From Acidobacteriota bacterium (lineage in GTDB: Bacteria; Acidobacteriota; Thermoanaerobaculia; Gp7-AA8), in assembly GCA_025463165.1 (NCBI GenBank), contig JAOBAU010000113.1, forward strand, positions 1-52,830: a stretch of 52,830 nucleotides of DNA, written 5' to 3'. Shown here piece after piece: positions 1 through 39,607 of this stretch. Under the pieces are notes generated by a model. The model was not told the DNA's origin and ran no database searches. It saw only the letters and a program-made list of their open reading frames with translations. Numbering within the stretch: position 1 is the first letter of the stretch; each line of letters begins with the position of its first letter. The position numbers and the translations under genes were made by a program.

Positions 1-1033
1 CGGCCTTGAAGCAGGCGTGGGTCATCAGGTGGAACACGCCCGAGGCATAGGCTTTGGTGCCCACGCCGATGAACATGAAGCCGAGCTGCGAGACGGTGGA
101 GTAGGCGAGGACTTTTTTGATGTCCCACTGCCGGATGCCGATCGTCGCGGCGAAGAGCGCGGTACAGGCGCCGACGATGGCGACGACCGCCATCGCCGTC
201 GGCGAGAGGCGATAGAGGACGTTCGAGCGGACGATCATGTAGACGCCGGCGGTGACCATCGTCGCGGCGTGGATGAGTGCGGAGACCGGAGTCGGGCCGG
301 CCATGGCGTCAGGCAGCCAGACGAAGAGAGGAATCTGCGCCGATTTGCCGGTGGCGCCGAGGAAGAGCAGGAGACAGATGGTGGTGATGAGCGCCGGCGC
401 GAGATTTCCATGTGCCGCGATCTGCGTGACTTTCGCGAAGTCGACCGTGCCGAAGTTCGCGAGCATCAGGAACATGGCGATGAGGAAACCGAAGTCGCCG
501 ATGCGATTGACGATGAACGCTTTCTTGCCGGCTGCCGGCGCGTAGCCGGTCTCGTAATAGAAGCCGATCAGGAGATAGGAACAGAGTCCGACGCCTTCCC
601 AGCCGACGAACATGAAGAGATAGCTGGAGCCGAGGACGAGGATGAGCATCGCGGCGAGGAAGAGATTGAGGTACGCGAAGTAGCGCGCGTAGCCGTCTTC
701 ATGCGCCATGTAGCCGGCGGAGTAAAGATGGATCATGAAGCCGATCCAGGTGACGATCATCAGCATGACGACGCTGAGCGGATCGAGCTGGAACGCGATG
801 TCGGCGGAGATGCCGCCGGAAGAGATCCAGTTGTAAACGACGTCGAGGTGACGCTCGCCGCCGGGATACGCGTGGTGATACTGCACGACGGCAATGGTCG
901 CGAAGACCGCGGCAAAAAACGTCGACGCCAGCGCCACCGCGGTGACGAACGCCTTGCCGGCCTTCCTGCCGACGAGCCCGTTCACCAGGAAGCCGATGAA
1001 CGGGAGGAGGGGGATTAGCCAGAGTTTGTCCAT
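1..1033 (-). CDS. nuoL: NADH-quinone oxidoreductase subunit L (partial, runs off window start)
   Basis: Not in ORF track because truncated. Minus-strand ATG at 1033 reads MDKLWLIPLLPFIGFLVNG..., later GKSAQIPLFVWLPDAMAGPTPVSALIHAATMVTAGVY and DIKKVLAYSTVSQLGFMF, hallmark NuoL/ND5 motifs. Confidence 0.97.
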   Translation of the reverse strand, partial: MDKLWLIPLLPFIGFLVNGLVGRKAGKAFVTAVALASTFFAAVFATIAVVQYHHAYPGGERHLDVVYNWISSGGISADIAFQLDPLSVVMLMIVTWIGFMIHLYSAGYMAHEDGYARYFAYLNLFLAAMLILVLGSSYLFMFVGWEGVGLCSYLLIGFYYETGYAPAAGKKAFIVNRIGDFGFLIAMFLMLANFGTVDFAKVTQIAAHGNLAPALITTICLLLFLGATGKSAQIPLFVWLPDAMAGPTPVSALIHAATMVTAGVYMIVRSNVLYRLSPTAMAVVAIVGACTALFAATIGIRQWDIKKVLAYSTVSQLGFMFIGVGTKAYASGVFHLMTHACFKA

Positions 1034-1035
1034 TT

Positions 1036-1125
1036 CGAGTGAGTGCTGAGTGCTGAGTGCTGAGTGCTGAGTCAAACCCCCGGGTGGGCGGGACTCAGCA
1101 CTCTGCACTCAGCACTCTGCACTCG
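1036..1125. repeat. Heptamer-array palindrome A: (GAGTGCT)n GAGTC - 18 nt spacer - GACTC (AGCACTC/TGCACTC)n
   Basis: Read directly: left arm 1036-1073, right arm 1092-1125, mutually complementary. Confidence 0.95.
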
Positions 1126-1168
1126 TATCTCCTCACGTCTGGCCGCCGTGAGGAGATCCTCGCGGCGG

Positions 1169-1579
1169 CTAAGTCTTGTCGTTCACGCGATCCCGATAAT
1201 CCTCCGAGGAGGCGGGGTCGAGCTCCCAGCGGTGGCGGTCGCGTTCTCGTTCTTTTTCGCCGACTTTCAACTCTTCGTCGTCGGCGTATTCGATTCCCAT
1301 GGCGCGGCCGATGTCGCTGACCTGGTTCTGTTCCGGGGTGGTCATCGATGAAACGGCCGATTCGTCGCCCGATCCCTCCGCGGTTTCGAAGCGGGCGTCG
1401 ACGTCGCCTCCCGTGACTACGAGACTGTCGGCGCCGTCCTCTTTGAGGCGGTGGCGCAGATTTGCGGAGCCGGCGCTGATGTCCGGAATCGGCGGCTCGA
1501 TCTCATCATCGATGCCGTTGCGGTTCCGGTCGGCGCGTTCGTTCTCTTCCCAGTCAATGAGCTTTTCGGTCTTGTCCAT
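1169..1579 (-). CDS. Small acidic protein, DUF6335-like
   Basis: TGGDVDA...GDES...TPEQNQVSDIGRAMGIEYADDEEL...RDRHRWELDPAS resembles the DUF6335 family as I recall it; AGGAG upstream. Confidence 0.75.
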   Translation of the reverse strand: MDKTEKLIDWEENERADRNRNGIDDEIEPPIPDISAGSANLRHRLKEDGADSLVVTGGDVDARFETAEGSGDESAVSSMTTPEQNQVSDIGRAMGIEYADDEELKVGEKERERDRHRWELDPASSEDYRDRVNDKT

Positions 1580-1632
1580 TTTCGATGCTCCTGTCGAGCT
1601 CGAAAATGCGACCTCCGCGCCAACGGCGCGTT

Positions 1633-1935
1633 TTACCAGTGCATCAGGTTCGCTTCGTCGACGTCGATCGTCTCGCGGTGATGGAACAGCGAGAGGAAGA
1701 TGGCGAGCCCGACCGCTGCTTCCGCGGCCGCGATCGCCATGACGAAGAAGACGAAGATCATTCCGTGTAACTGATGAAACTGCCTCGCGTAGGCGAGGAA
1801 CGTCAGGTTGACGGCGTTCACCATCAGCTCGATCGACATGAAGATCGTGATGCCGTTCCTGCGCGTGAGCACCCCGCAGACGCCGATCGTGAAGAGGATC
1901 GCGCTGAGGATCAGAAAGTAATGAGTCGGGATCAT
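1633..1935 (-). CDS. nuoK: NADH-quinone oxidoreductase subunit K
   Basis: C-terminal 100 aa of ORF 1633..2694: MIPTHYFLILSAILFTIG...RRN...MSIELMVNAVNL...AIAAAEAAVGLAI; start overlaps nuoJ stop. Confidence 0.96.
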   Translation of the reverse strand: MIPTHYFLILSAILFTIGVCGVLTRRNGITIFMSIELMVNAVNLTFLAYARQFHQLHGMIFVFFVMAIAAAEAAVGLAIFLSLFHHRETIDVDEANLMHW

Positions 1936-2459
1936 CGAGCCCCCTCTCCGTCGGCCGCGCGCACTTTCGATGGCAGCCGGCCGCTCAGCAGCAATGCGCC
2001 GACGATCGCCGCCAGCAGGAGGATGGAGACCATCTCGAACGGGAAGATGTACGCCTGAAAGAGCTCGACGCCGACCGCGCGTGCGTCGGCGTTGAACGGT
2101 CCGTTGGGGAGCTGCAGCGCCGCGTACTTGGCGATGTAGTAGACGAGCCCGAGGCCGAAGGCGGCGCTGCCGGTGTAGCCGAGGAACTGCTGGATGGGAC
2201 GCGTGTTCTCTTCGCGCGCGTGCTGCAGATTGAGCAGCATGATCACGAAAAGGAACAGCACCATGATCGCGCCGGCGTAAACGATGATCTGCAGCACGGC
2301 GAGGAACGGCGCTTCGAGCAGCACGTACATCACCGCCAGCGCGAAGAAGGACGCGACGAGTGAGAGCGCGCCGACCACCGGATTGCGATGGAGGATGACG
2401 GCGAGGGCGAAGATCACGGCGATGGCGGCGAAGACGAAGAAGACGATGAATTCGAGCAT
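1932..2459 (-). CDS. nuoJ: NADH-quinone oxidoreductase subunit J
   Basis: RNPVVGAL, LQIIVYAGAIMVLFLFVIMLL and PFEMVSILLLAAIVGA motifs. Confidence 0.96.
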   Translation of the reverse strand: MLEFIVFFVFAAIAVIFALAVILHRNPVVGALSLVASFFALAVMYVLLEAPFLAVLQIIVYAGAIMVLFLFVIMLLNLQHAREENTRPIQQFLGYTGSAAFGLGLVYYIAKYAALQLPNGPFNADARAVGVELFQAYIFPFEMVSILLLAAIVGALLLSGRLPSKVRAADGEGAR

Positions 2460-2462
2460 TGG

Positions 2463-3764
2463 CTAGATCCAGCCCTTCGCGATCGCCAGCGCGACGATGA
2501 TCAGATTTACCAGCGCCAGCGGCAGAAACACCTTCCAGCCGGCTTTCATCAGGATGTCGTACTTCAGTCGCGGGATCGTCCAGCGCACCCAGACGAAAAC
2601 GAACAGCATGAACGTCACTTTCACCACGAAGGCGAGAGCGGAGAGGAGGAATCCGAAGAAGGTCGGCGGCTCGTGGTACCAGGGGATGTCCCATCCGCCG
2701 AGGAAGAGCGTCACGATCAACGCCGACATCGTCGCCATCGCGATGTACTCGGACATGAAGAACAGCGCGAACTTCATCGACGAGTATTCAGTGTGGTAGC
2801 CGGCCACGAGCTCCGCTTCAGCTTCCGCGAAATCGAACGGCAGCCGGTTCGTCTCCGCGAATGCGGCGATGACGAAGACAACGAACGCGATCCACATCAC
2901 CGGCGAGAAGACGTTCCACGCGGGCAGCTTCACCGTGTCGAAGATGACGAAGTAGCCGGTCTGCTTCCAGACGACGTCGGTCAGCCGCAGCGAGCCGGCG
3001 ACGAGCAGTGCGCTGACCGCGGCGAGCGACAGCGCCAGCTCGTACGAGATCATCTGCGCCGACGCGCGGATGCCGCCGAAGAGCGAGAACTTGTTGTTCG
3101 ATGCCCAGCCGGCCATGACGATGCCGTACACGCCCATCGATGCGAGCGCGAAGACGAGCAGCAGTCCGACGTTCAGATCGGCGACGATCGGCTCGAAGAT
3201 GCGATTGCCGCCCGGGATGCGAATGGCATCGACGGCTTTCAGTCCGGCGAGGCTGAGGATGACGGCCAGTCCGCCGAGGATCAGCGCGGCGCCGACGAGC
3301 CAGCCGACGGCGACGTTCAGCTTGCTCGCGCCGCCGCGTGAGCTGACGCGCACGGTAGAGAACGCGACGCCGCCGCCGAGGAACAACAGCGCCAGCGCGA
3401 GCGTCCAGCCGATCGTCGACACGTGCTCGTAAAGGATTGCTTCGGGAATGAGGAACGGACGTCCCCACGGCACGACGGCGATCGTCGTCAGCGCGGGGAT
3501 GAGGCCGAACATTGGCGCGATCGTGAAGAGCCACTTGTTCGCGCCGGCCGGCGTGAAGTCTTCCTTGAGGACGAACTTCAGCGCGTCGGCGAATGACTGA
3601 ATGAGGCCGAACGGTCCGATGCGGTTCGGACCGACGCGATCCTGGATCAGCGCGCTGCCGCGGCGCTCGACCCAGACCATGATCGGCGTCACCTGCAGCA
3701 GCGCGCCGACGACGATGGCGATCTTGAGCAGCGAGAGAACGATGTCGGTGGTATCGAATGCCAT
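2463..3764 (-). CDS. nuoH: NADH-quinone oxidoreductase subunit H with internal hydrophobic insertion
   Basis: ERR...QDRVGPNRIGPFGLIQSFADALK, GWASNNKFSLFGGIRASAQMISYE, AETNRLPFDFAEAEAELVAGYHTEYS. Confidence 0.97.
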   Translation of the reverse strand: MAFDTTDIVLSLLKIAIVVGALLQVTPIMVWVERRGSALIQDRVGPNRIGPFGLIQSFADALKFVLKEDFTPAGANKWLFTIAPMFGLIPALTTIAVVPWGRPFLIPEAILYEHVSTIGWTLALALLFLGGGVAFSTVRVSSRGGASKLNVAVGWLVGAALILGGLAVILSLAGLKAVDAIRIPGGNRIFEPIVADLNVGLLLVFALASMGVYGIVMAGWASNNKFSLFGGIRASAQMISYELALSLAAVSALLVAGSLRLTDVVWKQTGYFVIFDTVKLPAWNVFSPVMWIAFVVFVIAAFAETNRLPFDFAEAEAELVAGYHTEYSSMKFALFFMSEYIAMATMSALIVTLFLGGWDIPWYHEPPTFFGFLLSALAFVVKVTFMLFVFVWVRWTIPRLKYDILMKAGWKVFLPLALVNLIIVALAIAKGWI

Positions 3765-3776
3765 CGCCGATCGTCC

Positions 3777-5378
3777 TTACGCGGGCTGGCTCGCCACTGC
3801 GCCGCTGCCGTCATCGCTCCAGACGACGTTCGCGAGCGCCGGCACATCGCCGCGCATCGTCTCGAACATCTCTTCGACGTCGGCGCTGCGGAACTCCGCT
3901 GCAGCGGGATAGAGCTTCACGCCGATGCGGCGGAAGATCTCGACGTCGGTGACCGCCTGGCCTTTCGGTGGATACGCCTGATGGATGCGCTGCACGCGTC
4001 CCTGCAGGTTGGTGAACGTTCCTTCTTTTTCGACGTGCACCGTCGCCGGGAGCAGCACGTCGGCGACTTCGTTGAGCGGATGATTGACGTCCCATGAATG
4101 AACGATGAGCGTCTTCGCCTGGCGAAGGTTGGCGATGACCTGCGGATCTTTCGCGCGATCGCTGAATCCGGCGTCGCAGATGTAGAGGACGTCGATGCCG
4201 GCGGCGCCTTCGGTCATCAACTGTTCTACAGTTTTCGTCGTTTTCGCGCCGACGCCGACGTTCTGCACGCCGCGGAAGTTCGGCGCGCCCTGCGTGCCGA
4301 GGATCCATTCGGTGCGCGTTTTCATTTTGATCGGGCCGATCGCGTCGACCATCACGTCGAGCGTCGCGGCGCCGGCGTTGTCGGCGAAGAGTTTCTTCGC
4401 CAGCCACGCTTCTTCATTGGTCATGTTCGCGGAAGCGATGACGGCGATCTTCTCGCCGCTCGTGCCGTTGAACGCCACGGCGATCGCGTCGAGCGCTTCG
4501 ATCCAGGTGGAGATGCCGAGGTAGTCGTCCTCGTTGCGAACCTTCGGGACGACCACGCGGTCGGTCTCGTAGCGCTCGTGCGAGAAGCGGCCGTAGTCGC
4601 ACAGCCAGTGATCGTTGACGTCGGGATTGACGCGCGGGCGATAGCGGAAGACCTGTCCGTTGCGATGGCCGACGAAGATGTTGCAGCCGACGTCGCAGCC
4701 GTTGCAGACCGACTCCGCGGAGTCGAGGTTCCAGACGCGTGATTCGAAGCGGAACTCGCGCGTGGTCAGTGCACCGGTCGGGCAGATGTCGGTGACGCAG
4801 GCCGACATCCAGTTGTCGAGCGGCGTGTCGGGGAAGACGCCGACTTCCGTCGCCGCGCCGCGCTTGAAGAAGCCGAGCTCTTTCGTCTCGGTGATCTCCT
4901 GCGTGAAGCGAATGCAGCGCGTGCAGTGGATGCAGCGATTCATGTTCTGCACGACGTGCGGTCCGATGGCCGTGCGGTCCATGCCGGGATAGGTGCGCTT
5001 GTACTCGCCGTAACGCGACTCGACCGAGCCGTAGTTGAACGAGTAATCCTGCAGCGGACACTCGCCGGCTTTGTCGCAGATCGGGCAGTCGAGCGGATGG
5101 TTGATGAGAAGAAACTCCATCTGCCCTTTACGCGCTTTGTCGACCTTGTCGTTATAGACGTGGATCTTCATCCCGTCTTTGACCGGAGTCGCGCAGCCCG
5201 CCTGAAGTTTCGGCATCCCTTCGACTTCGACGAGACACATGCGGCACTGGCCGACCACGGTCAGTGAGGGGTGGTAGCAGAAATGAGGGACGTGAACGTC
5301 CGCGGCTTTCGCCGCTTCGATGACGTTGATGCCGTCCTGGACGTCGACCTCGACGCCGTCGATCGTTACTTTCGCCAT
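3777..5378 (-). CDS. nuoG: NADH-quinone oxidoreductase subunit G (short form)
   Basis: VPHFCYHP, CRMCLVE, HPLDCPICDKAGECPLQD, RCIHCTRCIRF, CPTGAL and CNGCDVGC...WLCD Fe-S motifs; C-terminal EKEGTFTNLQGRVQR. Confidence 0.95.
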   Translation of the reverse strand: MAKVTIDGVEVDVQDGINVIEAAKAADVHVPHFCYHPSLTVVGQCRMCLVEVEGMPKLQAGCATPVKDGMKIHVYNDKVDKARKGQMEFLLINHPLDCPICDKAGECPLQDYSFNYGSVESRYGEYKRTYPGMDRTAIGPHVVQNMNRCIHCTRCIRFTQEITETKELGFFKRGAATEVGVFPDTPLDNWMSACVTDICPTGALTTREFRFESRVWNLDSAESVCNGCDVGCNIFVGHRNGQVFRYRPRVNPDVNDHWLCDYGRFSHERYETDRVVVPKVRNEDDYLGISTWIEALDAIAVAFNGTSGEKIAVIASANMTNEEAWLAKKLFADNAGAATLDVMVDAIGPIKMKTRTEWILGTQGAPNFRGVQNVGVGAKTTKTVEQLMTEGAAGIDVLYICDAGFSDRAKDPQVIANLRQAKTLIVHSWDVNHPLNEVADVLLPATVHVEKEGTFTNLQGRVQRIHQAYPPKGQAVTDVEIFRRIGVKLYPAAAEFRSADVEEMFETMRGDVPALANVVWSDDGSGAVASQPA

Positions 5379-5426
5379 AGTGTTCGCCTGGGTGATGCGC
5401 GGGGGATCGGTTCTTTCACATGAGGC

Positions 5427-5444
5427 GGGTGAAAGTTTTCACAA
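5427..5444. promoter_or_regulatory. Putative Rex-type (or CRP-family) operator upstream of nuoG
   Basis: GGGTGAA-AGTT-TTCACAA; on the minus strand TTGTGAA-AACT-TTCACCC, 12 of 14 positions matching TTGTGAA-N4-TTCACAA. Confidence 0.55.
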
Positions 5445-5519
5445 ACCGGTTGCGGAGCATAACGATTCAAATCTGCATCGTCAACGACATCACGCGAGGA
5501 GTAGTAGCATGCGCCTCGC

Positions 5520-6488
5520 ATGAAAAAAGACGTCCTCATCGCCATCGCCGCGATCGCCATCGTTGCCGCTCTCGCCTTCGGTTTGAATGCCATGCGGCTG
5601 CCTCTTCCTCCGACTCCCTCGCAGCCGTACGCGGCGTCTTCGTCCGCGACGGAAACGAAGTCTCCAAACGGGCACGTGGTCATGCGCGTCAACGGGGAAC
5701 CGGTCACCGAGGAGGAGTTCAACGTCGCGTTCCAGCAGCTGCCGGAGCAGCTCCAGCAGCAGTTCGCATCGGAGATCGGGAAGCAGGCGCTCGCCGAACG
5801 GATCGTCCGTCTGAAACTGCTCGAGCAGGAAGGCCGGAAGCAGGGACTGGAGAACGAGCCGAAGGTGGCCGCGCAGGTTGCGCTGAGCCGCACGAACGCC
5901 GTCGCCGACGCGACGTTCTCCAAAATGCAGAAGCCGGCCAGCGAAGCGGAGGTCACGAAGTTCTACGAACAGAACCGCGCGAAGCTCGAGTCGGTCGAGC
6001 TGAATCACATCCTCCTCTCGTACGCCGGCAGTGAAGCGCCGCCGCGCGAAGGCGGCGCGCGGCTGACGCAGGAGCAGGCCATTGCGAAAGCGCTGCAGAT
6101 TCGCGCGAAGCTCAAACAGGGCGGCGACTTCGCGGCAATCGCGAAGCAGTACTCCGACGATGCCGGCAGCGCGGTTCGCGGCGGCAGCCTCGGCGAGATC
6201 GCGCACGGCATGCTGCCGGCGGAGCTCGACAAAGTCGTCTTCGCGTTGCCGGTCGGTGAGGTGAGTCCGCCGGTGCCGTCGCGCTACGGCATTCACATCT
6301 TCAAGGTGACGAAGAAGCAGGGCGAGCCCAATCAGCAGATTCGCTCGATGATCGCGCAGCGCGTCGCGCAGCAGGACGCCATGCAGAAGATCGAAGCGAT
6401 GCGCAAATCGGCGAAGGTCGACTTCGATCCGAAGTTCTTCCCGAACGCGAAGATGCCGCCCATACCGCCGGTGCCGGTGAAAAACTAA
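5520..6488 (+). CDS. Parvulin-type (PpiC/PrsA/SurA-like) peptidyl-prolyl isomerase, membrane anchored
   Basis: N-terminal TM; VMRVNGEPVT; HILL...GGDFAAIAKQYSDD...GGSLG...VSPPVPSRYGIHIFKV rotamase motif. Confidence 0.92.
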   Translation: MKKDVLIAIAAIAIVAALAFGLNAMRLPLPPTPSQPYAASSSATETKSPNGHVVMRVNGEPVTEEEFNVAFQQLPEQLQQQFASEIGKQALAERIVRLKLLEQEGRKQGLENEPKVAAQVALSRTNAVADATFSKMQKPASEAEVTKFYEQNRAKLESVELNHILLSYAGSEAPPREGGARLTQEQAIAKALQIRAKLKQGGDFAAIAKQYSDDAGSAVRGGSLGEIAHGMLPAELDKVVFALPVGEVSPPVPSRYGIHIFKVTKKQGEPNQQIRSMIAQRVAQQDAMQKIEAMRKSAKVDFDPKFFPNAKMPPIPPVPVKN

Positions 6489-6518
6489 TCCCGGCGCGAT
6501 ACACTGTTGCCACCCCGC

Positions 6519-6905
6519 ATGACAATCGCCGCGCCGAAGGTTCTCGTCGTCGAAGACAACGACATGAACATGCAGCTCGTCGAGTATCTGCTCGAAGAGG
6601 GCGGATACGAGATCGTGAAAGCCAGCAGCGGCGAGGAAGCGCTGTCGATCACGCGCGACTCCGAATCGCCGGCGCCCGACATCATCCTGATGGACATTCA
6701 TCTGCCCGGGATGGACGGTCTGAGCGTCGTGCGCGAGATCAAATCGGATGAGCGGATGCGCGGCGTTCCGATCCTCGCGCTGACCGCGCACGCCATGCGC
6801 GGCGACAAAGATCGCTTCCTCGAAGCAGGATGCGACGGCTACATCTCCAAGCCGATCGACGTGAAGACGTTCCTCTCGTCGATCGAACAGTACCTTCGAA
6901 AATAA
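6519..6905 (+). CDS. Single-domain response regulator (DivK/CheY-like)
   Basis: VLVVEDN, PDIILMDIHLPGMDG, ALTAHAM, GCDGYISKPID. ATG 6519 preferred over TTG 6507. Confidence 0.93.
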   Translation: MTIAAPKVLVVEDNDMNMQLVEYLLEEGGYEIVKASSGEEALSITRDSESPAPDIILMDIHLPGMDGLSVVREIKSDERMRGVPILALTAHAMRGDKDRFLEAGCDGYISKPIDVKTFLSSIEQYLRK

Positions 6906-6923
6906 ACCAGCAGGAGTCCCTCA

Positions 6924-8057
6924 TTGAACATCCTCGTCCTCGGCTCCGGCCGCATGGGCCTCGGCGCCGCTTACGATTTCGCACAACAGCCTGACGTCGA
7001 GCGCGTCACCGTCGCCGACATCGAGCTCGCCCGCGCCGAAGCGGTCGCGAAGCGCATCGGCAGCGACAAAGTCGTCCCCGTGCAGATCGACGTCACCGAT
7101 CACAAAGCGGTCGTCGAGCTGATGCGCGGCCATGCATCGACGCTCAGCTGCGTCGTCTACAAACTCAACGTCCAGCTCGCACGCGCCGCCATCGAAGCGG
7201 GCACGAACTTCTGCGACCTCGGCGGCAACAACGACGTCGTCGGCGCCGAGCTCGCACTCGATGCCGAAGCGCGCGACGCCGGCATCACGATCGTTCCCGA
7301 CTGTGGACTCGCACCCGGCATGGTGGCGGTGCTCGTCGCACACGCGGTGGAGCGCTTCACGAACGTCGACGAGATCCACATTCGCGTCGGCGGACTGCCG
7401 CAGGATCCGAAACCGCCGCTCAACTATCAGATGGTCTTCTCGGTCGAGGGACTCATCAACGAATACATCGAACGTGCGCGTGTCATGCGCGACGGAAAGA
7501 TCCTCGAAGTCGAATCGATGACCGAGATCGAAGAGCTGGAGTTCCCGGCGCCGTTCGGAAAGATGGAAGCGTTCCAGACTTCCGGTGGCACGTCGACGCT
7601 TCCCGAAACGTTTCAGGGCCGCGTGAAAGAGCTCGACTACAAGACGATCCGCTACAAGGGTCATGGCGAGAAGATCAAGACGATGATCGACCTCGGACTC
7701 TGCAGCTCGACGCCGATTGAAGTCGACGGTGTGCGCATCGCGCCGCGGCGCCTCCTGTCGGAGCTCATCGTGAAGAACCTGCCGGCCGATGGACCGGACG
7801 TCGTGCTCGTCCGCGTCGAAGTGATCGGCGACGGCAAGCGCCTTCGTTACGACATCATCGATTACCAGGATGAAGCGACCGGACTCTCCGCGATGATGCG
7901 GACGACCGCGTTCCCGGCGGCGATCGTGGCGCTGATGATGGCGCGCGGCGACGTCGCGAAGAAAGGCGCCATGCCGCAGGAGCGCTGCATCCCGACGCAG
8001 AAGTTCATGGACGAGCTGGCGAAGCGGAAGATCGACGTGAAAGAGGAGTGGAGTTAA
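6924..8057 (+). CDS. Saccharopine dehydrogenase family / lysine 6-dehydrogenase-like oxidoreductase
   Basis: Rossmann GSGRMG, DCGLAPG, RVGGLPQ, YKTIRYKGH, SAMMRTTAFPA; TTG start with AGGAG upstream. Confidence 0.88.
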   Translation: MNILVLGSGRMGLGAAYDFAQQPDVERVTVADIELARAEAVAKRIGSDKVVPVQIDVTDHKAVVELMRGHASTLSCVVYKLNVQLARAAIEAGTNFCDLGGNNDVVGAELALDAEARDAGITIVPDCGLAPGMVAVLVAHAVERFTNVDEIHIRVGGLPQDPKPPLNYQMVFSVEGLINEYIERARVMRDGKILEVESMTEIEELEFPAPFGKMEAFQTSGGTSTLPETFQGRVKELDYKTIRYKGHGEKIKTMIDLGLCSSTPIEVDGVRIAPRRLLSELIVKNLPADGPDVVLVRVEVIGDGKRLRYDIIDYQDEATGLSAMMRTTAFPAAIVALMMARGDVAKKGAMPQERCIPTQKFMDELAKRKIDVKEEWS

Positions 8058-8060
8058 GCG

Positions 8061-8408
8061 ATGCAACTCCTGCTGCGATGGCTGCTGAACACGATCGCGC
8101 TGTTCATCGTGGTGACGGTCGTGCCGGGCTTTTCGTATCGGACGATCGTCACGCTGGCCATCGCCGCCGCGGTGCTCGGTCTGCTGAACGCGATCGTCCG
8201 GCCGATCCTTTTTCTGCTCACGCTCCCACTGACGATCGTAACGCTCGGCCTCTTTCTGATCGTGCTGAACGCGATCATGCTCGAGCTGACCGACGTGCTC
8301 GTGCCGGGCTTTGCCATCAGTCATTTCCGATGGGCGATCGTCGGTGCGATCGTTCTCGGGCTCGTGTCGCTGATCACGAATCGGATCGGACGGCGCGAGA
8401 AAAGCTGA
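8061..8408 (+). CDS. YvlD-like 4-TM membrane protein (phage holin superfamily IV domain)
   Basis: LGLLNAIVRPILFLLTLPLTIVTLGLFLIVLNA signature. Confidence 0.88.
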   Translation: MQLLLRWLLNTIALFIVVTVVPGFSYRTIVTLAIAAAVLGLLNAIVRPILFLLTLPLTIVTLGLFLIVLNAIMLELTDVLVPGFAISHFRWAIVGAIVLGLVSLITNRIGRREKS

Positions 8409-8449
8409 GTCTTGTTACACTAGCGCCGACTTTCGAAGGAGATCTGCTT

Positions 8450-8800
8450 TTGAACATCATCAAAAACCGCGTCAGTGACGTCACAGTGCTGGACATCCAG
8501 GGTGTGATCAAGCTCGGAGAGAGCGCCCGCGAGTTCTCGAGCTATCTCGAGAAAGTCCTCAATGACGAGACCGGTCCGGTGATGATCAACTTCGAAGCGA
8601 TCAACTACATGGACTCGACCGGCCTCGGCGAGCTCATCGGTTACCTGCAGAAGTTCGAAGACCGCCAGCGCAAGATGGCGCTAGTGAAACCGTCGCACCG
8701 AATCCTCGCCCACCTTAAGATCACGAAGCTGGATACCGTCTTCAAGATCTTCGATTCGCGCGAGACGGCGATGGCCTATCTGACGGATACGGCGGCTTAA
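8450..8800 (+). CDS. STAS-domain anti-sigma factor antagonist
   Basis: C-terminal part of ORF 8048..8800; INYMDSTGLGELI, LKITKLDTVF; TTG 8450 with AAGGAG upstream. Confidence 0.88.
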   Translation: MNIIKNRVSDVTVLDIQGVIKLGESAREFSSYLEKVLNDETGPVMINFEAINYMDSTGLGELIGYLQKFEDRQRKMALVKPSHRILAHLKITKLDTVFKIFDSRETAMAYLTDTAA

Positions 8801-8812
8801 TCAGGCGAACAA

Positions 8813-8901
8813 GGTGCTGAGTGCAAAGTGCTGAGTGCTGAGTCAAAGCACTCGGTTCTTTCGTTCTCCGACTCAGCACTCTGCACTCAGCACTCTGCAC
8901 C
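8813..8901. repeat. Heptamer-array palindrome B
   Basis: GGTGCT GAGTGCA AAGTGCT GAGTGCT GAGTC - 25 nt - GACTC AGCACTC TGCACTC AGCACTC TGCACC. Confidence 0.95.
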
Positions 8902-8961
8902 GTTGCGAAGCAACGCGTTTCCCGTTAGCATTCGCGCCCGCAGCGCAGCCACAACCGCGTT

Positions 8962-9333
8962 ATGACACACACCTTCATCCCCGTCTTAATCATGCTGATC
9001 GTCGCTCTCGGCGTCGGCGTGGTCATTCTTTCGCTGAACCGGGTCGTGGGACGGCATCAGCGCAATCCTTCGAAAGCGGCTCCGTACGAGAGCGGCGTGC
9101 CGCTTCTCGATACGAACCGCAAGCGCGTCAACGTCCGCTTCTACCAGATCGCGATGCTGTTCATTCTGTTCGACATCGAAGCCGCCTTTCTCTATCCGTG
9201 GGCGGTGATTTATCGCGACGCCAGCCACGGCAACGCCGGGATGTTCCTCTTCGGCGAAATGCTCGTCTTCATCCTTCTCCTCGGCGTCGGCTACGTCTAC
9301 GTCTGGAAGAAGAAGGCGTTCGACTGGAAGTGA
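8962..9333 (+). CDS. nuoA: NADH-quinone oxidoreductase subunit A
   Basis: PYESG, RFYQIAMLFILFDIEAAFLYPWA, C-terminal WKKKAFDW. Confidence 0.96.
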   Translation: MTHTFIPVLIMLIVALGVGVVILSLNRVVGRHQRNPSKAAPYESGVPLLDTNRKRVNVRFYQIAMLFILFDIEAAFLYPWAVIYRDASHGNAGMFLFGEMLVFILLLGVGYVYVWKKKAFDWK

Positions 9334-9342
9334 ATCCAACCA

Positions 9343-9873
9343 ATGGCTGATCTGCATCCCGACAATCCGTACGCAAAAGACCGCTTCCCCGATCGCGCGA
9401 AGCAGGTCGAGTTTCCGCCCGAGCACAAGGCGCGCTTCGAGCATCTGCTGACTCGCTATCCGACCAAAGAGGCATGCCTGCTGCCGACGCTGCATCTCGC
9501 GCAGGAAGTGTGGGGCTGGATCTCGCCGGAGGTCGTGCACTACGTCGGATCGCTGCTCGATCTCTCGCCGGCGCAGGTCTTCGGCGTCGTCTCGTTCTAC
9601 AACATGTACAACCAGAAACCTGTGGGGAAGTATCACCTGCAGGTCTGCACGAATCTCAGCTGCATGGTCTCGAATGCGTACGACATCTACGACCATCTCT
9701 GCGACCGCCTGAAGATCAATCCGGGCGAGACGACGAAGGACGGTCTCTACACCGTCGTCGAAGTCGAATGCCTCGGCTCGTGCGGCACCGCTCCCGTCGT
9801 GCAGATCAACAACGACTATCACGAGAACATGGACGTGGCGAAGATGGACGCGCTGCTGCCGACACTGAAATGA
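9343..9873 (+). CDS. nuoE: NADH-quinone oxidoreductase subunit E
   Basis: RYP...LLPTLHLAQ, VSFYNMY, CTNLSC...ECLGSC 2Fe-2S ligands. Confidence 0.96.
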   Translation: MADLHPDNPYAKDRFPDRAKQVEFPPEHKARFEHLLTRYPTKEACLLPTLHLAQEVWGWISPEVVHYVGSLLDLSPAQVFGVVSFYNMYNQKPVGKYHLQVCTNLSCMVSNAYDIYDHLCDRLKINPGETTKDGLYTVVEVECLGSCGTAPVVQINNDYHENMDVAKMDALLPTLK

Positions 9874-11174
9874 CCGAGCCGATCAAAGTTCTCACCGCCA
9901 ACATCGACAAGCCGAACTCGGCGTCGATCGAGACATACGGCGACTACGCCGCGGCGCGCAAAGCGCTGGCGATGAAGCCGGAAGACGTCGTCACGCTCGT
10001 GAAAGATTCGGAGCTCCGCGGTCGCGGCGGCGCCGGCTTCCCGACCGGCATGAAGTGGTCGTTCGTGCCGAAGAACGCGCCGAAGCCGACGTATCTCCTC
10101 TGCAATGCGGACGAGTCGGAGCCGGGCACGTTCAAAGATCGCGTCCTCATCGAGCAGGATCCGCATCTGTTGCTCGAAGGGATGCTCATCGCCGCGTACG
10201 CGATCGGCTCCTGCCCGATGGGCTACATCTACATTCGCGGCGAGTTCTATTTTGGCGCCACCGTCCTCGACAAAGCACTCGAAGAAGCGCGCGCCAAAGG
10301 CTTCCTCGGCAAAAACATTTTCGGCACCGGCTTCGACTTCGACATGACCGTGCACCGCGGTGCCGGCGCGTACATCTGCGGTGAAGAAACGGGACTGATC
10401 GAATCGGTCGAAGGTCATCGCGGACAGCCGCGTGTGAAGCCGCCGTTCCCCGCGGTCGTCGGCGTCTTCGGCGGACCGACCGTCGTCAACAATGTTGAGA
10501 CGCTCGCCTGCGTGCCACTAATCGTGAAGAACGGCGCGGAGTGGTTCAAAGGATTCGGCACGCCGAAGAACACCGGGCCGAAGCTCTACTGCGTCTCCGG
10601 CAACGTGAAGAAGCCGGGCGTCTACGAGTTCCCGATGGGCATCAATCTGAAGGAACTGATTTACGACCACTGCGGCGGCATCACCGGCGATCGCAAACTG
10701 AAAGCGGTCATCCCGGGCGGTGCTTCGGCGCCGATGCTGCTCCCTGATGAGATCGATCTGCCGCTCAACTTCGACGCGGTGATGAAAGCCGGCTCGATGC
10801 TCGGCTCTGCCGGAATCATCGTGCTCGACGAATCCGTCTGCATCGTCGACGCCGTGTGGCGTCTCGCGAAGTTTTTCGCGCATGAGTCGTGCGGTCAATG
10901 CACGCCGTGCCGCGAAGGAACGAACTGGCTGGAGTCAATCCTCGATCGTCTCGAGCGGGGAGAAGGACGTCCGCAGGATGCCGATCTGCTGCTCGACATG
11001 TCGGACAACATCGGCGGCAAATCGCTCTGCGCGCTCGGCGATGCGGCCATCGGCCCGGTGATCTCGAGCGTGAGGAAGTTCCGCGACGAATACGTCTATC
11101 ACGTGACGCACAAGTCGTGTCTGCCAGGCACACGCCGCTATCGCAGACTCGACATGCCGGTCGCCGCACACTGA
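9870..11174 (+). CDS. nuoF: NADH-quinone oxidoreductase subunit F
   Basis: LRGRGGAGFPTGMKW, NADESEPGTFKDR, GAGAYICGEETGL, ESCGQCTPCREG, CALGD; ATG 9870 overlaps nuoE stop. Confidence 0.97.
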   Translation: MTEPIKVLTANIDKPNSASIETYGDYAAARKALAMKPEDVVTLVKDSELRGRGGAGFPTGMKWSFVPKNAPKPTYLLCNADESEPGTFKDRVLIEQDPHLLLEGMLIAAYAIGSCPMGYIYIRGEFYFGATVLDKALEEARAKGFLGKNIFGTGFDFDMTVHRGAGAYICGEETGLIESVEGHRGQPRVKPPFPAVVGVFGGPTVVNNVETLACVPLIVKNGAEWFKGFGTPKNTGPKLYCVSGNVKKPGVYEFPMGINLKELIYDHCGGITGDRKLKAVIPGGASAPMLLPDEIDLPLNFDAVMKAGSMLGSAGIIVLDESVCIVDAVWRLAKFFAHESCGQCTPCREGTNWLESILDRLERGEGRPQDADLLLDMSDNIGGKSLCALGDAAIGPVISSVRKFRDEYVYHVTHKSCLPGTRRYRRLDMPVAAH

Positions 11175-11176
11175 CG

Positions 11177-11196
11177 ACGGCGCGACGTCGCGCCGT
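11177..11196. terminator. Perfect 20-bp palindrome just after nuoF stop (possible terminator or stabilising hairpin)
   Basis: ACGGCGCGAC/GTCGCGCCGT; only a short T tail. Confidence 0.5.
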
Positions 11197-11217
11197 TCAC
11201 GTCCGTATCTTCCCCGT

Positions 11218-13407
11218 ATGCCCCGGATCCTCTTCGCTCTCCTCTTCCTCGCCACCGCCGCTTACGCCGATACCGCCGACGTTTCCGTCGCGCTCAACAC
11301 GGTCCCGAGCGTCGTCACCGGCGGGCTCTATCCGGTCACGGTCTCGCTGCACAACGCCGGACCTGACGCCGCGGCCGGCGCACGCGTCCGCATCGAAATG
11401 ACGGATCGACGATTCGTGCCGCTCGACAAATATCCGAGCTGTCTCGTTGATGGCGACGCCATCCTTTGTTACGCATACGACTTCGCGGCAGGAGAGACGC
11501 GCGACTTCGCGCTGACGTTCACCGCGCACGACTCGCCAACGCCGATTTCCATTCGCGCGACGGCGATCACGACGAACGATCCGAATCCGGCGAACGACTC
11601 CGCCGGCGCAACCGTCAACGTCTTCGCCGCCGTCGATCTGCATCTCTCCGTCGACGTCTATCCGAGTCTGCAGCCGCGTCAACAGAGTCAGGTGCGATTC
11701 GACGTCCGCAATTTGTCGTCGACGCCGGCCGGACCGTTCAGCGCTCTCTTCACCTTTCCGGCGACGCTGACGGTGACGAGCTTTCCCGATCACTGCGATC
11801 AACTCGATTCGGCAAACTACCGATGCGATTTCGCCGGTCTGTCGTTCGGCATCGTCGCCGCCGCGTTTCAGGTCGTGCCCGATGACGGCAGTCATTCGGC
11901 GACGGTGAGCGGGTCGGTCGATTTCAACGGCGACGCCAACCCGTCCGACAATCGCGTGACGCTCGACGTGCCGGTGTATGACGTCGCGCAGCTGGTGGCG
12001 TCGATCACCTCGCCCGATCGGCTCGACGAATCGCGCACCGCCGCCATTCGCTATCACATCGAAAACAGGTCCGACGTTGCCGCGACGAACGTCGTCGTCG
12101 AGACGTTCGCCGGCTTCACTTCGACGATCGCCGGTTTCACCGCCGATGGCTGGTCGTGCGTGCCGAAAGGGAGCGAGCCCGGTCTGCGCTGTACCACGCC
12201 GACGCTCGCGCCGCGCGAAGCGCGCGACATCGTAATGAACGTCCTCTTCCCGACGCGCGAGCTGCGCGCGCAACTCTTCGCGAGCGTGACGCAAACGACG
12301 CCGGCCGAGTTTCGCGCTCTGCCGAACTTCACCACGGTGAACGGCGTCTTCTATCGCGTCTTCAACGTCACGAATGCGCTCGACCTCGGCGCCGGCTCGC
12401 TGCGCGCGGCCATCGACGCCGCGAACGCGCAATGCGGCAACGATCAGCTCAACATCCCATGCAAGGTCGCGTTCCAGGGCTCGCTCACGATCGCGCCACG
12501 CTCGCCGCTGCCGATCGTCACCGCTCCCGACTTCGCGATCGATGGCGCAGCGCAAACGTTCATCGACGGCGCGCTCGCCGGCGACACTGACGGGCTGCAC
12601 ATCAACTCGACGATCGCCGACGTACGAGGCCTCGCCATCCGCAATTTCGCACGCAACGGTCTGCTGCTCGAACGCGGAACCGCGCAGGTTCCGACGCCGA
12701 ATCAGGAGCAGCGCATCGTGCAGAATCTCCTCACCGTCAACGGCCTGCGCGGGCTGATGGCGCTCCGCTTCCAGGGCACGATCGCCGCGAACATCATCGG
12801 CAACAACGCGCGCAGCGCGATCTTTCTCTATCCCGCAACGAATACGACGATCCGCGACAACCGCATCGGCGTCGCGGCGGACGACTCGCCGCTGCCGAAC
12901 GGCGCGAGCGGCATCTTCATCGGACCGCAGTCGAACAACATCACGATCGAGAACAACGTCATCGCCAACAACAGCGACTTCGGCATCGCCGTCGCGCGTC
13001 CGGTGACGATCAACATCGCCGCGAATCGCTTCATCAACAGCGGACAGCGCGCCATCGACGTCGGCCTCGATGGTCCATCGCCCTCCGAACAGACCGCGCC
13101 CGCGCCGTCGATCCTTTCCGCTCGGTACGACGCCTCGAGCGGCGACACGATCATCGAAGGCTCCGGCGTCGCGCGCGCCTATCCGCGGCGCGAAACGCTC
13201 TACCTCTACGCGAACGCCGCCGACGTCGCGGAAGGACATCGCTTCCTCGGCACCACGACGGTCGATCGCGACGGCCGCTTCGTCTTCCGCGTACACGACG
13301 ATCTGCGCGGAACGTTCGTCGCTGCCGCCGGCGTGATCCTCACTGACTTCGGCGACATCGCCTGGCGGAACTCGACGGAGCTCAGCGCGCGGCTGCGAGT
13401 GGACTGA
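11218..13407 (+). CDS. Secreted protein with DUF11-like Ig domains and C-terminal right-handed beta-helix
   Basis: Signal peptide; HNAGPDAA, DPNPAND, DANPSDN motifs; VTNALDLGAGSLRAAI; Asn-rich IRDNRIG/IENNVIANN repeats. Confidence 0.75.
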   Translation: MPRILFALLFLATAAYADTADVSVALNTVPSVVTGGLYPVTVSLHNAGPDAAAGARVRIEMTDRRFVPLDKYPSCLVDGDAILCYAYDFAAGETRDFALTFTAHDSPTPISIRATAITTNDPNPANDSAGATVNVFAAVDLHLSVDVYPSLQPRQQSQVRFDVRNLSSTPAGPFSALFTFPATLTVTSFPDHCDQLDSANYRCDFAGLSFGIVAAAFQVVPDDGSHSATVSGSVDFNGDANPSDNRVTLDVPVYDVAQLVASITSPDRLDESRTAAIRYHIENRSDVAATNVVVETFAGFTSTIAGFTADGWSCVPKGSEPGLRCTTPTLAPREARDIVMNVLFPTRELRAQLFASVTQTTPAEFRALPNFTTVNGVFYRVFNVTNALDLGAGSLRAAIDAANAQCGNDQLNIPCKVAFQGSLTIAPRSPLPIVTAPDFAIDGAAQTFIDGALAGDTDGLHINSTIADVRGLAIRNFARNGLLLERGTAQVPTPNQEQRIVQNLLTVNGLRGLMALRFQGTIAANIIGNNARSAIFLYPATNTTIRDNRIGVAADDSPLPNGASGIFIGPQSNNITIENNVIANNSDFGIAVARPVTINIAANRFINSGQRAIDVGLDGPSPSEQTAPAPSILSARYDASSGDTIIEGSGVARAYPRRETLYLYANAADVAEGHRFLGTTTVDRDGRFVFRVHDDLRGTFVAAAGVILTDFGDIAWRNSTELSARLRVD

Positions 13408-13459
13408 CGCCGGGGGCGTATCATTGAGGCCTTTCCCGCGCTCGTGACGGAGGGTCTGC

Positions 13460-14014
13460 ATGCAGGAAGTGCACGTCAAGGCAGTTCCGGTGAATGGGCT
13501 TTGTCAGTTCGTCGCGCAGGAGCTGACTCCCGAGCAGCTTCGCGCCGCGACCGAGAAGATGGGAGCGGACAGCCGGTGGTTCACCGGACATCTCCTCGCG
13601 CACGAGATGGTTCCGCTGGCGCTCGTGAATCGCTTCACCGCGCTCTGTGCCGCGGAAAAGAAAGAACCGGTGCGGCAGTTCGCGAAACGCGCCGGCCGCT
13701 TCGGCGCGGCGCTCGGCGTGAAGAGCGTCTACAAGTTCATCCTCGCCGTGCTGTCGATCGAGTACGTGTTGAAGAAGGCGCCGTTCATGTGGACGCGCGT
13801 CTACGACGGCGGCACGATGGACGTCGACGCGACGGACAAACACGCGCGCATTCGCATCAGAGATTTTCCCGCGCACGAGGCCGGCTGCGGCCGCATCACC
13901 GGCTGGTTCGAAGTCGTCGGCGAGCGCGCCGGGGCGAAGGACCTTCGCTGTTCTCACACGTCGTGCGCCGCCGAAGGCGCTACCGAATGCGTTTGGGACT
14001 TCGAATGGCGATGA
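13460..14014 (+). CDS. Hypothetical V4R/HNOX-like ligand-binding protein
   Basis: C-terminal GCGRITGW...SHTSCAAEGATECVWDFEW resembles V4R; GGAGG upstream. Confidence 0.55.
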   Translation: MQEVHVKAVPVNGLCQFVAQELTPEQLRAATEKMGADSRWFTGHLLAHEMVPLALVNRFTALCAAEKKEPVRQFAKRAGRFGAALGVKSVYKFILAVLSIEYVLKKAPFMWTRVYDGGTMDVDATDKHARIRIRDFPAHEAGCGRITGWFEVVGERAGAKDLRCSHTSCAAEGATECVWDFEWR

Positions 14015-14019
14015 CCCTT

Positions 14020-14101
14020 CGGTGCTGAGTGCTGAGTCCGTCGAAAACTGTCACGCAGTGTTTGCTTCGACGCAGCACTCAGCACTCGGCACTCGGCACC
14101 G
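14020..14101. repeat. Heptamer-array palindrome C with internal CGTCGAA/TTCGACG stem
   Basis: CGGTGCT GAGTGCT GAGTC ... AGCACTC AGCACTC GGCACTC GGCACCG. Confidence 0.9.
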
Positions 14102-14591: not shown

Positions 14592-14612
14592 TCGCTGCAA
14601 ATCGGGCGTAGA

Positions 14613-14638
14613 ATTCGTGCTCCTGATCGAGCACGAAT
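14613..14638. promoter_or_regulatory. 10-bp inverted repeat spanning from the -10 box to the sigma-factor start codon
   Basis: ATTCGTGCTC-CTGATC-GAGCACGAAT, overlapping TAGAAT (14609-14614) and ATG (14637). Confidence 0.5.
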
Positions 14639-37276: not shown

Positions 37277-37281
37277 AATCC

Positions 37282-37385
37282 AGTGCTGAGTGCAGAGTGC
37301 TGAGTGCTGAGTCGCTCCGCTGCACGAAAGCTCATCGGGCATCACGAGGCCTTTTTCTCAGCACTCAGCACTCTGCACTCAGCAC
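37282..37385. repeat. Heptamer-array palindrome E
   Basis: AGTGCT GAGTGCA GAGTGCT GAGTGCT GAGTC - about 43 nt - CTC AGCACTC AGCACTC TGCACTC AGCAC. Confidence 0.95.
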
Positions 37386-39525: not shown

Positions 39526-39603
39526 GTGCTGAGTGCTGAGTGCAGAGTGCTGAGTCACGCTTCGCGTCCTCGGCCTTTTGACTCAGCACTCAGCACTCTG
39601 CAC
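39526..39603. repeat. Heptamer-array palindrome F between convergent genes
   Basis: GTGCT GAGTGCT GAGTGCA GAGTGCT GAGTCA - 21 nt - TGACTC AGCACTC AGCACTC TGCAC. Confidence 0.95.
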
Positions 39604-39607
39604 TGAT

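Follow-up and report, generated by a model that had tools for sequence, protein, structure and literature searches.

A complex I locus without nuoB, nuoC, nuoD and nuoI in a Thermoanaerobaculia genome, and a stand-alone nuoB-nuoCD-nuoI operon that probably completes it

Introduction

Detachment of nuoB, nuoC, nuoD and nuoI from the main complex I operon, with nuoC and nuoD fused, is already reported for Chloroflexi: according to Chadwick et al. (2018, ISME J), as summarized in PMC7117926, the Anaerolineae-type '2M' complex I has these genes apart from the main operon and a second nuoM between nuoL and nuoM. The NuoL of this enzyme is lengthened (PMC6606698). A complex I-like enzyme of 11 subunits that lacks the N module is described in two further sources (PMC11238625, PMC3144371). 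As for regulation, nuoA1-N1 of Streptomyces avermitilis is reported to belong to the Rex regulon, with an operator over the -35 element at nuoA1 (PMC5355995), and TTGTGAAW4TTCACAA is given as the Rex consensus of Staphylococcus aureus (PMC2883068).

The window analyzed here is an entire contig of 52,830 nt from a metagenome-assembled genome (MAG) of the class Thermoanaerobaculia (5.1 Mb, 471 contigs, 4.2% contamination). Like the Chloroflexi '2M' arrangement, this genome has detached nuoB, nuoC, nuoD and nuoI and a fusion of nuoC with nuoD, but the phylum is Acidobacteriota, a single nuoL, nuoM and nuoN are present in the locus (completed on contig C336) and in its relatives, 14 contiguous operons of which read L-M-N, and NuoL has the usual length (664 aa for the ortholog in genome G087). 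No locus labeled Chloroflexota occurs among the best 80 NuoCD loci, and the nearest non-acidobacterial NuoCD relatives among these carry contiguous canonical operons, which hints that the detachments in Chloroflexi and Thermoanaerobaculia may have arisen independently. The canonical order A-B-CD-E-F-G-H-I-J-K-L-M-N is found in Latescibacterota, Zixibacteria, Calditrichota, Gemmatimonadota and some Acidobacteriota loci. The set described below equals that of the canonical 14-gene operon in its subunits, in the fused CD and in the short NuoG (about 520-530 aa), whereas its genes are distributed over three transcription units that lie apart from one another in the genome. The 11-subunit enzyme corresponds in make-up to another set of the same genome, on contig C443, from which the window set differs by having NuoE, NuoF and NuoG.

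Results

Two divergent nuo units in the window

Pfam scans and gene coordinates show two divergent units, nuoA-E-F on the plus strand and nuoG-H-J-K-DUF6335-L on the minus strand. They are separated by about 3.6 kb with five unrelated plus-strand genes, encoding a PPIase (5520-6488), a response regulator (6507-6905), a saccharopine dehydrogenase (6924-8057), a holin-like protein (8061-8408) and a STAS protein (about 8460-8800). A terminator-like hairpin of heptamer repeats (8830-8856, plus strand) lies between the STAS gene and nuoA (8962-9333; PF00507, E 6e-33). After a 9-bp gap nuoA is followed by nuoE (9343-9873; PF01257, E 6.5e-52), which overlaps by 4 bp with nuoF (9870-11174, 434 aa; PF01512, PF10589 and SLBB). 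On the minus strand, a sigma-70-like promoter (5456-5484; TTGACG, 17 nt, TATGCT), recognized as a consensus match, precedes a short form of nuoG (3777-5378, 533 aa; PF13510, PF10588, PF22117, PF22151 and PF00384). It is followed by nuoH (2463-3764, 433 aa; PF00146, E 1e-112, matched in two stretches), by nuoJ (1932-2459; PF00499), which begins 3 bp after the nuoH stop, and by nuoK (1633-1935; PF00420). A gene for an acidic DUF6335 protein of 136 aa without a hydrophobic segment (1169-1579; PF19861, E 5e-27) sits between nuoK and nuoL, a position that it also holds in genomes G031, G012 and G087. The N-terminal 369 codons of nuoL (2-1108; PF00662 and PF00361) run off the contig end, and the real nuoL start is probably near 1030. 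The remainder of nuoL, then nuoM, nuoN and rex, lies on C336. An exact overlap of C336 with the window start was sought and none was found; the two nuoL pieces map onto one nuoL in G087, G031 and G012. The end of C336 also carries about 15 codons that resemble a paralogous nuoL.

The preliminary description of this stretch had stated that nuoE follows nuoA after 9 bp and nuoJ follows nuoH after 3 bp, and that nuoB, nuoC, nuoD and nuoI are absent without remnants. The gene coordinates confirm the spacings, and remnants are indeed absent because the two gaps leave no room for them. Matches to PF01058 (NuoB), PF00329 (NuoC) and PF00346 (NuoD) number zero in the window, and within the genome they are confined to contigs C4 and C443.

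A stand-alone nuoB-nuoCD-nuoI operon elsewhere in the genome

The whole-genome search and copy count proposed in the preliminary description revealed a second nuoB/C/D/I set besides that of C443. The genome has two copies each of nuoA, nuoB, nuoC, nuoD, nuoH, nuoI, nuoJ, nuoK, nuoL, nuoM and nuoN, and single copies of nuoE, nuoF and nuoG. C443 carries a separate, self-sufficient 11-gene operon, nuoABCDHIJKLMN, with its own nuoB, nuoC, nuoD and nuoI and without an N module. Outside C443, nuoB, nuoCD and nuoI occur only on C4, as a stand-alone three-gene operon in which nuoC and nuoD are fused into one 592-aa ORF (PF00329 and PF00346), and nuoA, nuoH and nuoJ to nuoN occur only in the window and on C336. 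All 14 core subunits A to N are thus encoded by the window (A, E, F, G, H, J, K and L), C336 (the C-terminal part of L, M and N) and C4 (B, CD and I). The N module is complete, with PF01512 and PF10589 in NuoF, PF01257 in NuoE and Fe-S domains in NuoG. The C4 proteins keep CC...GACA...GCPP in NuoB, two CxxCxxCxxxC motifs in NuoI, and GPSHPATHG (GPxHPxxHG) and DRLNY (...NY...) in NuoCD, which we take to be Fe-S cluster ligands and quinone-site residues. The earlier judgment that random decay is an unlikely cause of the loss is supported.

The B/C/D/I proteins of C4 and C443 share 30-55% identity. Against canonical 14-gene operons, NuoI of C4 scores 120-169 bits and that of C443 62-90 bits. For NuoA, NuoH, NuoJ and NuoK, the window and C443 copies are not clearly separated by their similarity to outgroup canonical operons, and the NuoD comparison is biased because the query lengths differ. 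Outgroup similarity, clear for NuoI only, was therefore dropped as a main argument for pairing the two sets.

The split is shared across Thermoanaerobaculia

A fused NuoCD of the C4 type occurs in 99 of 121 sampled genomes of the class, and each of the 99 also has a NuoE match; among the other 22, NuoE is not matched in 20 and only weakly in two, counts to be read with the relatedness of the genomes in mind, since these are not independent samples. The preliminary description had reasoned that a split that is the norm for the lineage would be a simple rearrangement, and the class does follow one pattern: nuoA is directly followed by nuoE and nuoF in all 20 class regions examined, and nuoB, nuoC/D and nuoI were not detected in any of them. 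In 14 of the 20, nuoA-E-F-G-H-J-K-L-M-N is contiguous without B, C, D and I, so that the N-module genes of these relatives lie inside the nuo operon. In the family of the window, nuoA-E-F is adjacent in 30 of 30 loci.

Four relatives (G022, G001, G021 and G042; 96-99% complete) were chosen for having a single NuoD match. In all four, the sole PF00346 gene is a fused nuoCD within a stand-alone B-CD-I operon, and three of them (G001, G021 and G042) have a nuoA-E-F-G-H-J-K-L(-M-N) operon that lacks B, C, D and I. In two single-contig genomes the loci lie far apart on one chromosome, with nuoE at 2.52 Mb and nuoCD at 5.46 Mb in G055, and at 2.21 and 5.70 Mb in G087. Other Acidobacteriota show further groupings, including B-CD-E-F-G-I and B-CD-G-I, and loci from which nuoI, or nuoB and nuoI, are absent from their usual places. 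A description of the Thermoanaerobaculia gene order was not found in the literature searched; one may stand in supplementary tables such as Supp. Table 4 of 10.1101/2020.10.01.322446, where Nuo genes of MAGs of this kind are listed.

Rex operator-like sites upstream of nuoB and nuoG

The rex gene (C336:1106-1786, minus strand; PF06971, E 1.5e-15, and PF02629, E 2.2e-17) adjoins nuoN and is the genome's only PF06971 match; nuoN is followed by rex in 13 of 17 relatives. A Rex operator-like palindrome (5427-5444, minus strand; TTGTGAANNNNTTCACAA, 2 mismatches) is found between the promoter-like site and nuoG, 48 bp upstream of the gene start and immediately after that site, and is kept in G087, G031 and G012. 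A similar site with 1 mismatch (C4:10930-10947) lies 34 bp upstream of nuoB, where its left half is the -35 hexamer, as with the operator over -35 reported for S. avermitilis nuoA1. At up to 2 mismatches such sites number six in the 5.1-Mb genome, the nuoB and nuoG ones included, and none lies upstream of the C443 operon. Across 150 loci (1.71 Mb), 42 of 45 such sites fall in the 200 bp that precede a nuoB, nuoA or nuoG start, and a motif derived from the nuoB upstream regions of relatives alone has one other match in the genome, upstream of nuoG. A Rex-like box also precedes nuoA in several canonical operons (L080, L086, L141 and L156).

The site is not universal. In the family of the window, 0 of 30 loci have a Rex-like site near nuoA at up to 3 mismatches, and therefore not all nuo pieces share the operator. 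Many of the more distant B-CD-I loci likewise lack a box at up to 2 mismatches, as do 6 of 14 contiguous operons and all 7 loci examined of the single-NuoD relatives. The operator consensus and the PF06971-PF02629 architecture equal those of known Rex regulons, from which the present case differs in that rex ends a nuo operon and the putative operators stand on two pieces of a split nuo set. Judging from the sequence, the NADH-sensing repressor Rex probably acts on at least two of the nuo units. The preliminary description had suggested a Q module encoded as a separately regulated operon elsewhere; the C4 operon fits its location, and separate regulation is weakened because this operon and the nuoG unit share the operator-like site. 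A CRP reading of the palindrome (TGTGA-N6-TCACA) gave only three unrelated palindromes genome-wide and was replaced by Rex.

Discussion

The split is shared by the class and accompanied by the C4 operon; most likely, therefore, the window holds part of the genes for an ordinary respiratory enzyme whose gene set is dispersed, namely a complex I of the 14-subunit type with its N module and membrane arm in the window and on C336 and its Q module on C4 (probability about 0.85). NuoE, NuoF and NuoG would form the NADH-input module, NuoA, NuoH, NuoJ, NuoK and NuoL together with NuoM and NuoN from C336 the membrane arm, and NuoB, NuoCD and NuoI from C4 the quinone-reduction module, the products of all three contigs assembling into one standard NADH:quinone oxidoreductase. 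The split into nuoB-CD-I and nuoA-E-F-G-H-J-K-L-M-N is old and common to most of Thermoanaerobaculia, and in the family of the window the long operon was cut again into nuoA-E-F and nuoG...N-rex. Rex, by sensing NADH/NAD+, may tie the expression of the pieces together at least in part, with the operator-like sites at the nuoB-CD-I and nuoG promoters as its likely points of control. Assembly and Rex control are what we infer; the observations behind them concern which genes are present, their order and co-occurrence, and the conservation of the operator-like sites.

The main competitor to this reading is a shared Q module, in which NuoB-CD-I would dock on either membrane arm, the 14-type one encoded by the window or the 11-type one from C443, to give hybrid enzymes, detachment allowing the module to be dosed independently. 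This genome does encode two of each, membrane arms and Q modules, a promoter of its own is predicted at nuoB-CD-I, and peripheral-arm genes have become detached in several different ways in the phylum, but C443 has its own B/C/D/I, only 30-55% identical to the C4 proteins, and in the four single-NuoD relatives the detached module is the only one and is accompanied by a single membrane arm, so that the split can be explained without exchange. We consider it quite unlikely. The broader idea that modular detachment is selected for, the Rex-controlled NuoB-CD-I being a dosable module that serves more than one membrane arm in two-arm genomes, is prompted by Q-module detachment, taken as independent, in both Thermoanaerobaculia and Chloroflexi and by the related re-sortings in other Acidobacteriota; it is hardly more probable.

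Very improbable is the possibility that the window subunits use the Q module of C443 or, as the preliminary description had offered, a non-standard connector, while the C4 operon serves another enzyme. The connector finds no support, as the detached operon is the sole NuoD-family source in the four relatives, three of which have, alongside it, the operon lacking B, C, D and I. The same reading is opposed by the company of fused NuoCD and NuoE in 99 of 99 genomes, by the operator-like site common to C4 and nuoG and absent at C443, and by the closer match of C4 NuoI to canonical NuoI. An assembly or binning artefact of a fragmented or contaminated MAG might be suspected because the window ends within nuoL and paralog-like nuoL codons stand at the C336 end. 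However, the nuoA-nuoE and nuoH-nuoJ junctions are internal to the contig, nuoA-E-F is adjacent throughout the family, and the closed relatives G055 and G087, which also have separate loci, refute this explanation, to which we give next to no weight.

The apparent anomaly of the window is removed on the reading of one enzyme encoded in pieces: the gene set is complete and its core is not missing. A whole class of Acidobacteriota is seen to have its complex I genes in two or three units, with the cuts falling at the boundaries between functional modules. Genome annotation and metabolic reconstruction should take account of this, since these bacteria are widespread in soil and sediment and a nuo operon that lacks B, C, D and I might be miscalled as incomplete. 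The arrangement also offers a natural case for the study of co-regulation among split operons of one complex.

Two further features of the minus-strand unit were observed. In the window NuoH, some 85-90 aa that include two hydrophobic segments are inserted at residues about 104-193 (window about 3186-3455), and the tblastn alignment of this protein with the C443 copy breaks there. A regex scan found 111 heptamer-repeat arrays genome-wide, eight of them in the window; an inverted pair of these arrays (1041-1124), between the DUF6335 gene and nuoL, can form a hairpin that could end transcription ahead of nuoL-M-N-rex.

The nuo genes missing from the window lie in a stand-alone operon

The window spans one entire contig (C127) of a MAG with 471 contigs (96% complete, 4.2% contamination), and its genes were called by Pfam scans and by reading of frames. 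In the Pfam scans the nuo genes fall into two divergent units, a point missing from the preliminary description. One unit, on the plus strand, consists of nuoA (8962-9333), nuoE (9343-9873) and nuoF (9870-11174), and the other, on the minus strand, consists of nuoG (5378-3777), nuoH (3764-2463), nuoJ (2459-1932), nuoK (1935-1633), a DUF6335 gene (1579-1169) and, truncated by the contig end, nuoL (1108-2). Between them lie about 3.6 kb with five unrelated plus-strand genes for a PPIase, a response regulator, a saccharopine dehydrogenase, a holin-like protein and a STAS protein. The gaps first reported, 9 bp from nuoA to nuoE and 3 bp from nuoH to nuoJ, are exact, and both junctions are too small to hold any remnant of nuoB, C, D or I.

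Family searches of the genome place NuoD and NuoB domains at two locations only, on contigs C4 and C443. The missing genes form a stand-alone operon on C4, where nuoB (10982-11566), a fused nuoCD (11563-13341; 592 aa, PF00329 and PF00346) and nuoI (13341-13985) are tightly packed, with a zinc peptidase gene and a rubrerythrin-like gene as neighbours. Expected motifs are retained in the C4 proteins, namely those of the cysteines, GPxHPxxHG and the tyrosine in its conserved context. Contig C443 carries a complete 11-gene operon, nuoA-B-C-D-H-I-J-K-L-M-N, without E, F and G. In tblastn of all subunits, E, F and G are single-copy genes in the genome, and A, B, C, D, H, I, J, K, L, M and N each occur exactly twice; one set is the self-contained C443 operon, and the other is scattered as A-E-F, G-H-J-K-x-L-M-N and B-CD-I.

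The remainder of nuoL, followed by nuoM and nuoN, is found on contig C336, and the nuoL pieces of the window and of C336 both map to one nuoL gene in three relatives. The break between the window start and the C336 end falls within a conserved nuoL motif, and the last ~15 codons at the C336 end are closer to the paralogous C443 nuoL than to the ortholog. Such a pattern is typical of breaks in assembly, and a tangle between the nuoL paralogs is its likely cause.

A split typical of Thermoanaerobaculia

We annotated the best 80 loci with relatives of the C4 NuoCD by tblastn, with flanks of up to 6 kb; most are labelled Thermoanaerobaculia, phylum Acidobacteriota. A complete B-CD-I triplet without any other nuo gene in the locus is present in 49 of these 80, and 7 further loci, interrupted by a contig end, are consistent with a stand-alone B-CD-I. 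The remaining 24 show several kinds of arrangement: B-CD-E-F-G-I (two Blastocatellia loci), B-CD-G-I (one locus), a Holophagae-type order in which E-F comes at a distance after A-B-C-D, canonical A-B-CD-E-F-G-H-I-J-K operons (Latescibacterota, Zixibacteria, Calditrichota, Gemmatimonadota and a Chryseobacterium-labelled MAG), and a few fragments ended by a contig boundary.

The class sample comprised 121 genomes, which include G004 and G104 (flagged unpublished) and, being related, are not independent samples. A match to the window NuoE is found in 101 of the 121 and a C4-type fused NuoCD in 99 (in 98 as a single open frame, in one divided between two contig ends); all 99 genomes with the fused NuoCD also have a NuoE match. 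Among the 22 genomes without it, 20 show no NuoE match (18 of family f13, one of f6, and G053), and two (G010 and G020) show weak NuoE matches only. In closed genomes the two loci lie far apart on one chromosome (2.52 and 5.46 Mb in G055, 2.21 and 5.70 Mb in G087, 1.21 and 1.37 Mb in G036).

In all of the 20-kb regions around nuoE from 20 class genomes, picked for long contigs, nuoE and nuoF come immediately after nuoA. A single contiguous nuoA-E-F-G-H-J-K-L-M-N without B, C, D and I occupies 14 of them (families f5, f7, f9, f10, f11, f14, f15 and f16). In the other six, from the window's own family and order (f1, f2), A-E-F stands on its own and is divergent from a nuoG 2.9-6.7 kb away, or nuoG is out of reach; A-E-F is likewise adjacent in 30 of 30 further f1/f2 loci. 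Twenty acidobacterial regions outside the class, a tally that alone includes genome G261, show many orders, including canonical, B-CD-E-F-G-I, B-CD-G-I and A-B-C-D...E-F, as well as operons without nuoI alone or without nuoB plus nuoI. Loci L146, L147, L151, L157, L139 and L045 of other Acidobacteriota are partial re-sortings of these last kinds, with nuoI alone missing, with nuoB and nuoI missing, or with a B-CD-G-I cluster. Because of these surveyed loci and genomes, we conclude that the class normally has its nuo genes split and that the order of peripheral-arm genes is fluid across the phylum.

The separate loci very likely encode one complex I

Four relatives that are 96-99% complete (G022, G001, G021 and G042) have a single NuoD match in the class sample. 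A PF00346 family search finds one NuoD-family gene in each, and in all four this sole gene lies within a stand-alone B-CD-I. Three of them (G001, G021 and G042) also possess the nuoA-E-F-G-H-J-K-L(-M-N) operon lacking B, C, D and I, which leaves the detached operon as their one possible Q module. Because of these single-NuoD relatives and the 99/99 co-occurrence, the window-type locus and B-CD-I are predicted, very likely correctly, to encode one enzyme. In one ordinary complex I, the A-E-F unit would supply the N module plus NuoA, the G-H-J-K-L-M-N unit NuoG with the membrane arm, and the B-CD-I unit the Q module.

The preliminary description held that the absence pattern was unlikely to be random, which is borne out, and allowed that a split common to the lineage would make it a simple rearrangement, which is what the class-wide gene-order survey finds. 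The window locus is thus one instance of a rearrangement found throughout the lineage, in an enzyme that is otherwise ordinary. The Chloroflexi arrangement of Chadwick et al., as outlined in PMC7117926, shares with the present case the detachment and the nuoC-nuoD fusion; its 2M feature, as outlined there, differs from the single nuoM and the nuoL of normal length found here. According to PMC12361115, most complex I clades are a mixture of split and single-cluster forms. The literature searched, supplementary tables lying outside the search, holds no account of this gene order in Thermoanaerobaculia, and the available sections of two acidobacterial genome papers mention only Nuo complexes or partly fragmented operons. 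New here are the class-wide extent, the further split within one family and the Rex link.

Rex-like operators precede nuoB and nuoG

Reading of the upstream regions revealed a block that is conserved ahead of nuoB among relatives and recurs ahead of the window's nuoG. A pattern built from the relatives' nuoB upstreams alone has only two matches on both strands of the 5.1-Mb genome, before nuoB on C4 and before nuoG. It conforms to TTGTGAANNNNTTCACAA, the Rex operator consensus given in PMC5355995 and PMC2883068. At ≤2 mismatches the genome has six Rex-like sites. The site at C4:10930, with 1 mismatch, precedes the nuoB start by 34 bp, and its left half is a -35-like hexamer 17 nt from TAGAAT. 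Window 5427-5444 holds another, with 2 mismatches, 48 bp ahead of nuoG; a promoter-like TTGACG-17-TATGCT is immediately upstream of this site. The second-best site in the genome (C463:8259; L177 2760-2777; 1 mismatch) precedes a multihaem cytochrome c7/c3-type gene by 93 bp, and some of the remaining three are apparently intragenic. The sole PF06971 match in the genome is a PF06971+PF02629 gene of Rex architecture that abuts the nuoN stop on C336, and rex follows nuoN in 13 of 17 relatives examined. In S. avermitilis, PMC5355995 describes Rex at the nuoA1 promoter, with its site over the -35 region and nuoA1-N1 repressed; the predicted operator at nuoB here has the same -35-covering geometry.

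Across 150 fetched loci (1.71 Mb, ≤2 mismatches) there are 45 Rex-like sites: 24 within 200 bp upstream of nuoB, 13 upstream of nuoA (in contiguous class operons or canonical operons elsewhere), 5 upstream of nuoG (two being the same G087 site fetched twice, and one lying inside an operon) and 3 elsewhere. Against the Rex reading, a site is absent from 6 of 14 contiguous operons, from most of the more distant B-CD-I loci and, at ≤2 mismatches, from all 7 loci of the single-NuoD relatives; against shared Rex control, no site occurs near nuoA in 30 loci of the window's family at ≤3 mismatches. The genome scan (≤2 mismatches) also finds no site before the C443 operon, which fits an enzyme without an NADH module, as a single case. 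We infer that a rise in NADH would release Rex from its operators and derepress the Q-module operon together with the nuoG...N(-rex) unit. The split possibly arose by gene relocation, or by duplication of a Rex-controlled ancestral operon with complementary losses; the latter would explain an operator at the promoter of both units.

Additional features of the nuo loci

On C443 (L006 8872-11111, minus strand), NuoB and NuoC are each extended at the C-terminus, with a PF04060 'putative Fe-S cluster' domain at the end of the extension; over 85 aa the two extensions share 66% identity. They may be an electron-input domain for an enzyme lacking the N module. The window NuoH has an insertion of ~85-90 aa (residues about 104-193; window 3186-3455) with two hydrophobic helix-like segments. 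The C443 NuoH is without it, and NuoH proteins of other families align better to the C443 copy than to the window copy. A full-length 433-aa match in genome G031 suggests that the insertion is common to the family.

The DUF6335 protein (136 aa) is very acidic and has no hydrophobic segment. Its gene also lies between nuoK and nuoL in G031, G012 and G087 and is absent from the contiguous nuo operons of other families; the protein could be an accessory factor, an assembly factor or a mere passenger. A small plus-strand ORF at window 14112-14591 matches PF02276 (photosynthetic reaction-centre cytochrome c subunit; E 2e-16) and directly precedes a sigma-70 family gene at 14592-15812.

Hairpins of tandem 7-nt units and their reverse complement occur in the window at 1041-1124, 8820-8895, 14074-14094, 37281-37380 and 39531-39605, and another lies upstream of nuoB on C4. 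The genome contains 111 arrays of at least three 7-nt units. In relatives, the corresponding intergenic positions hold hairpins of a similar kind, but the sequence of the unit differs from genome to genome.
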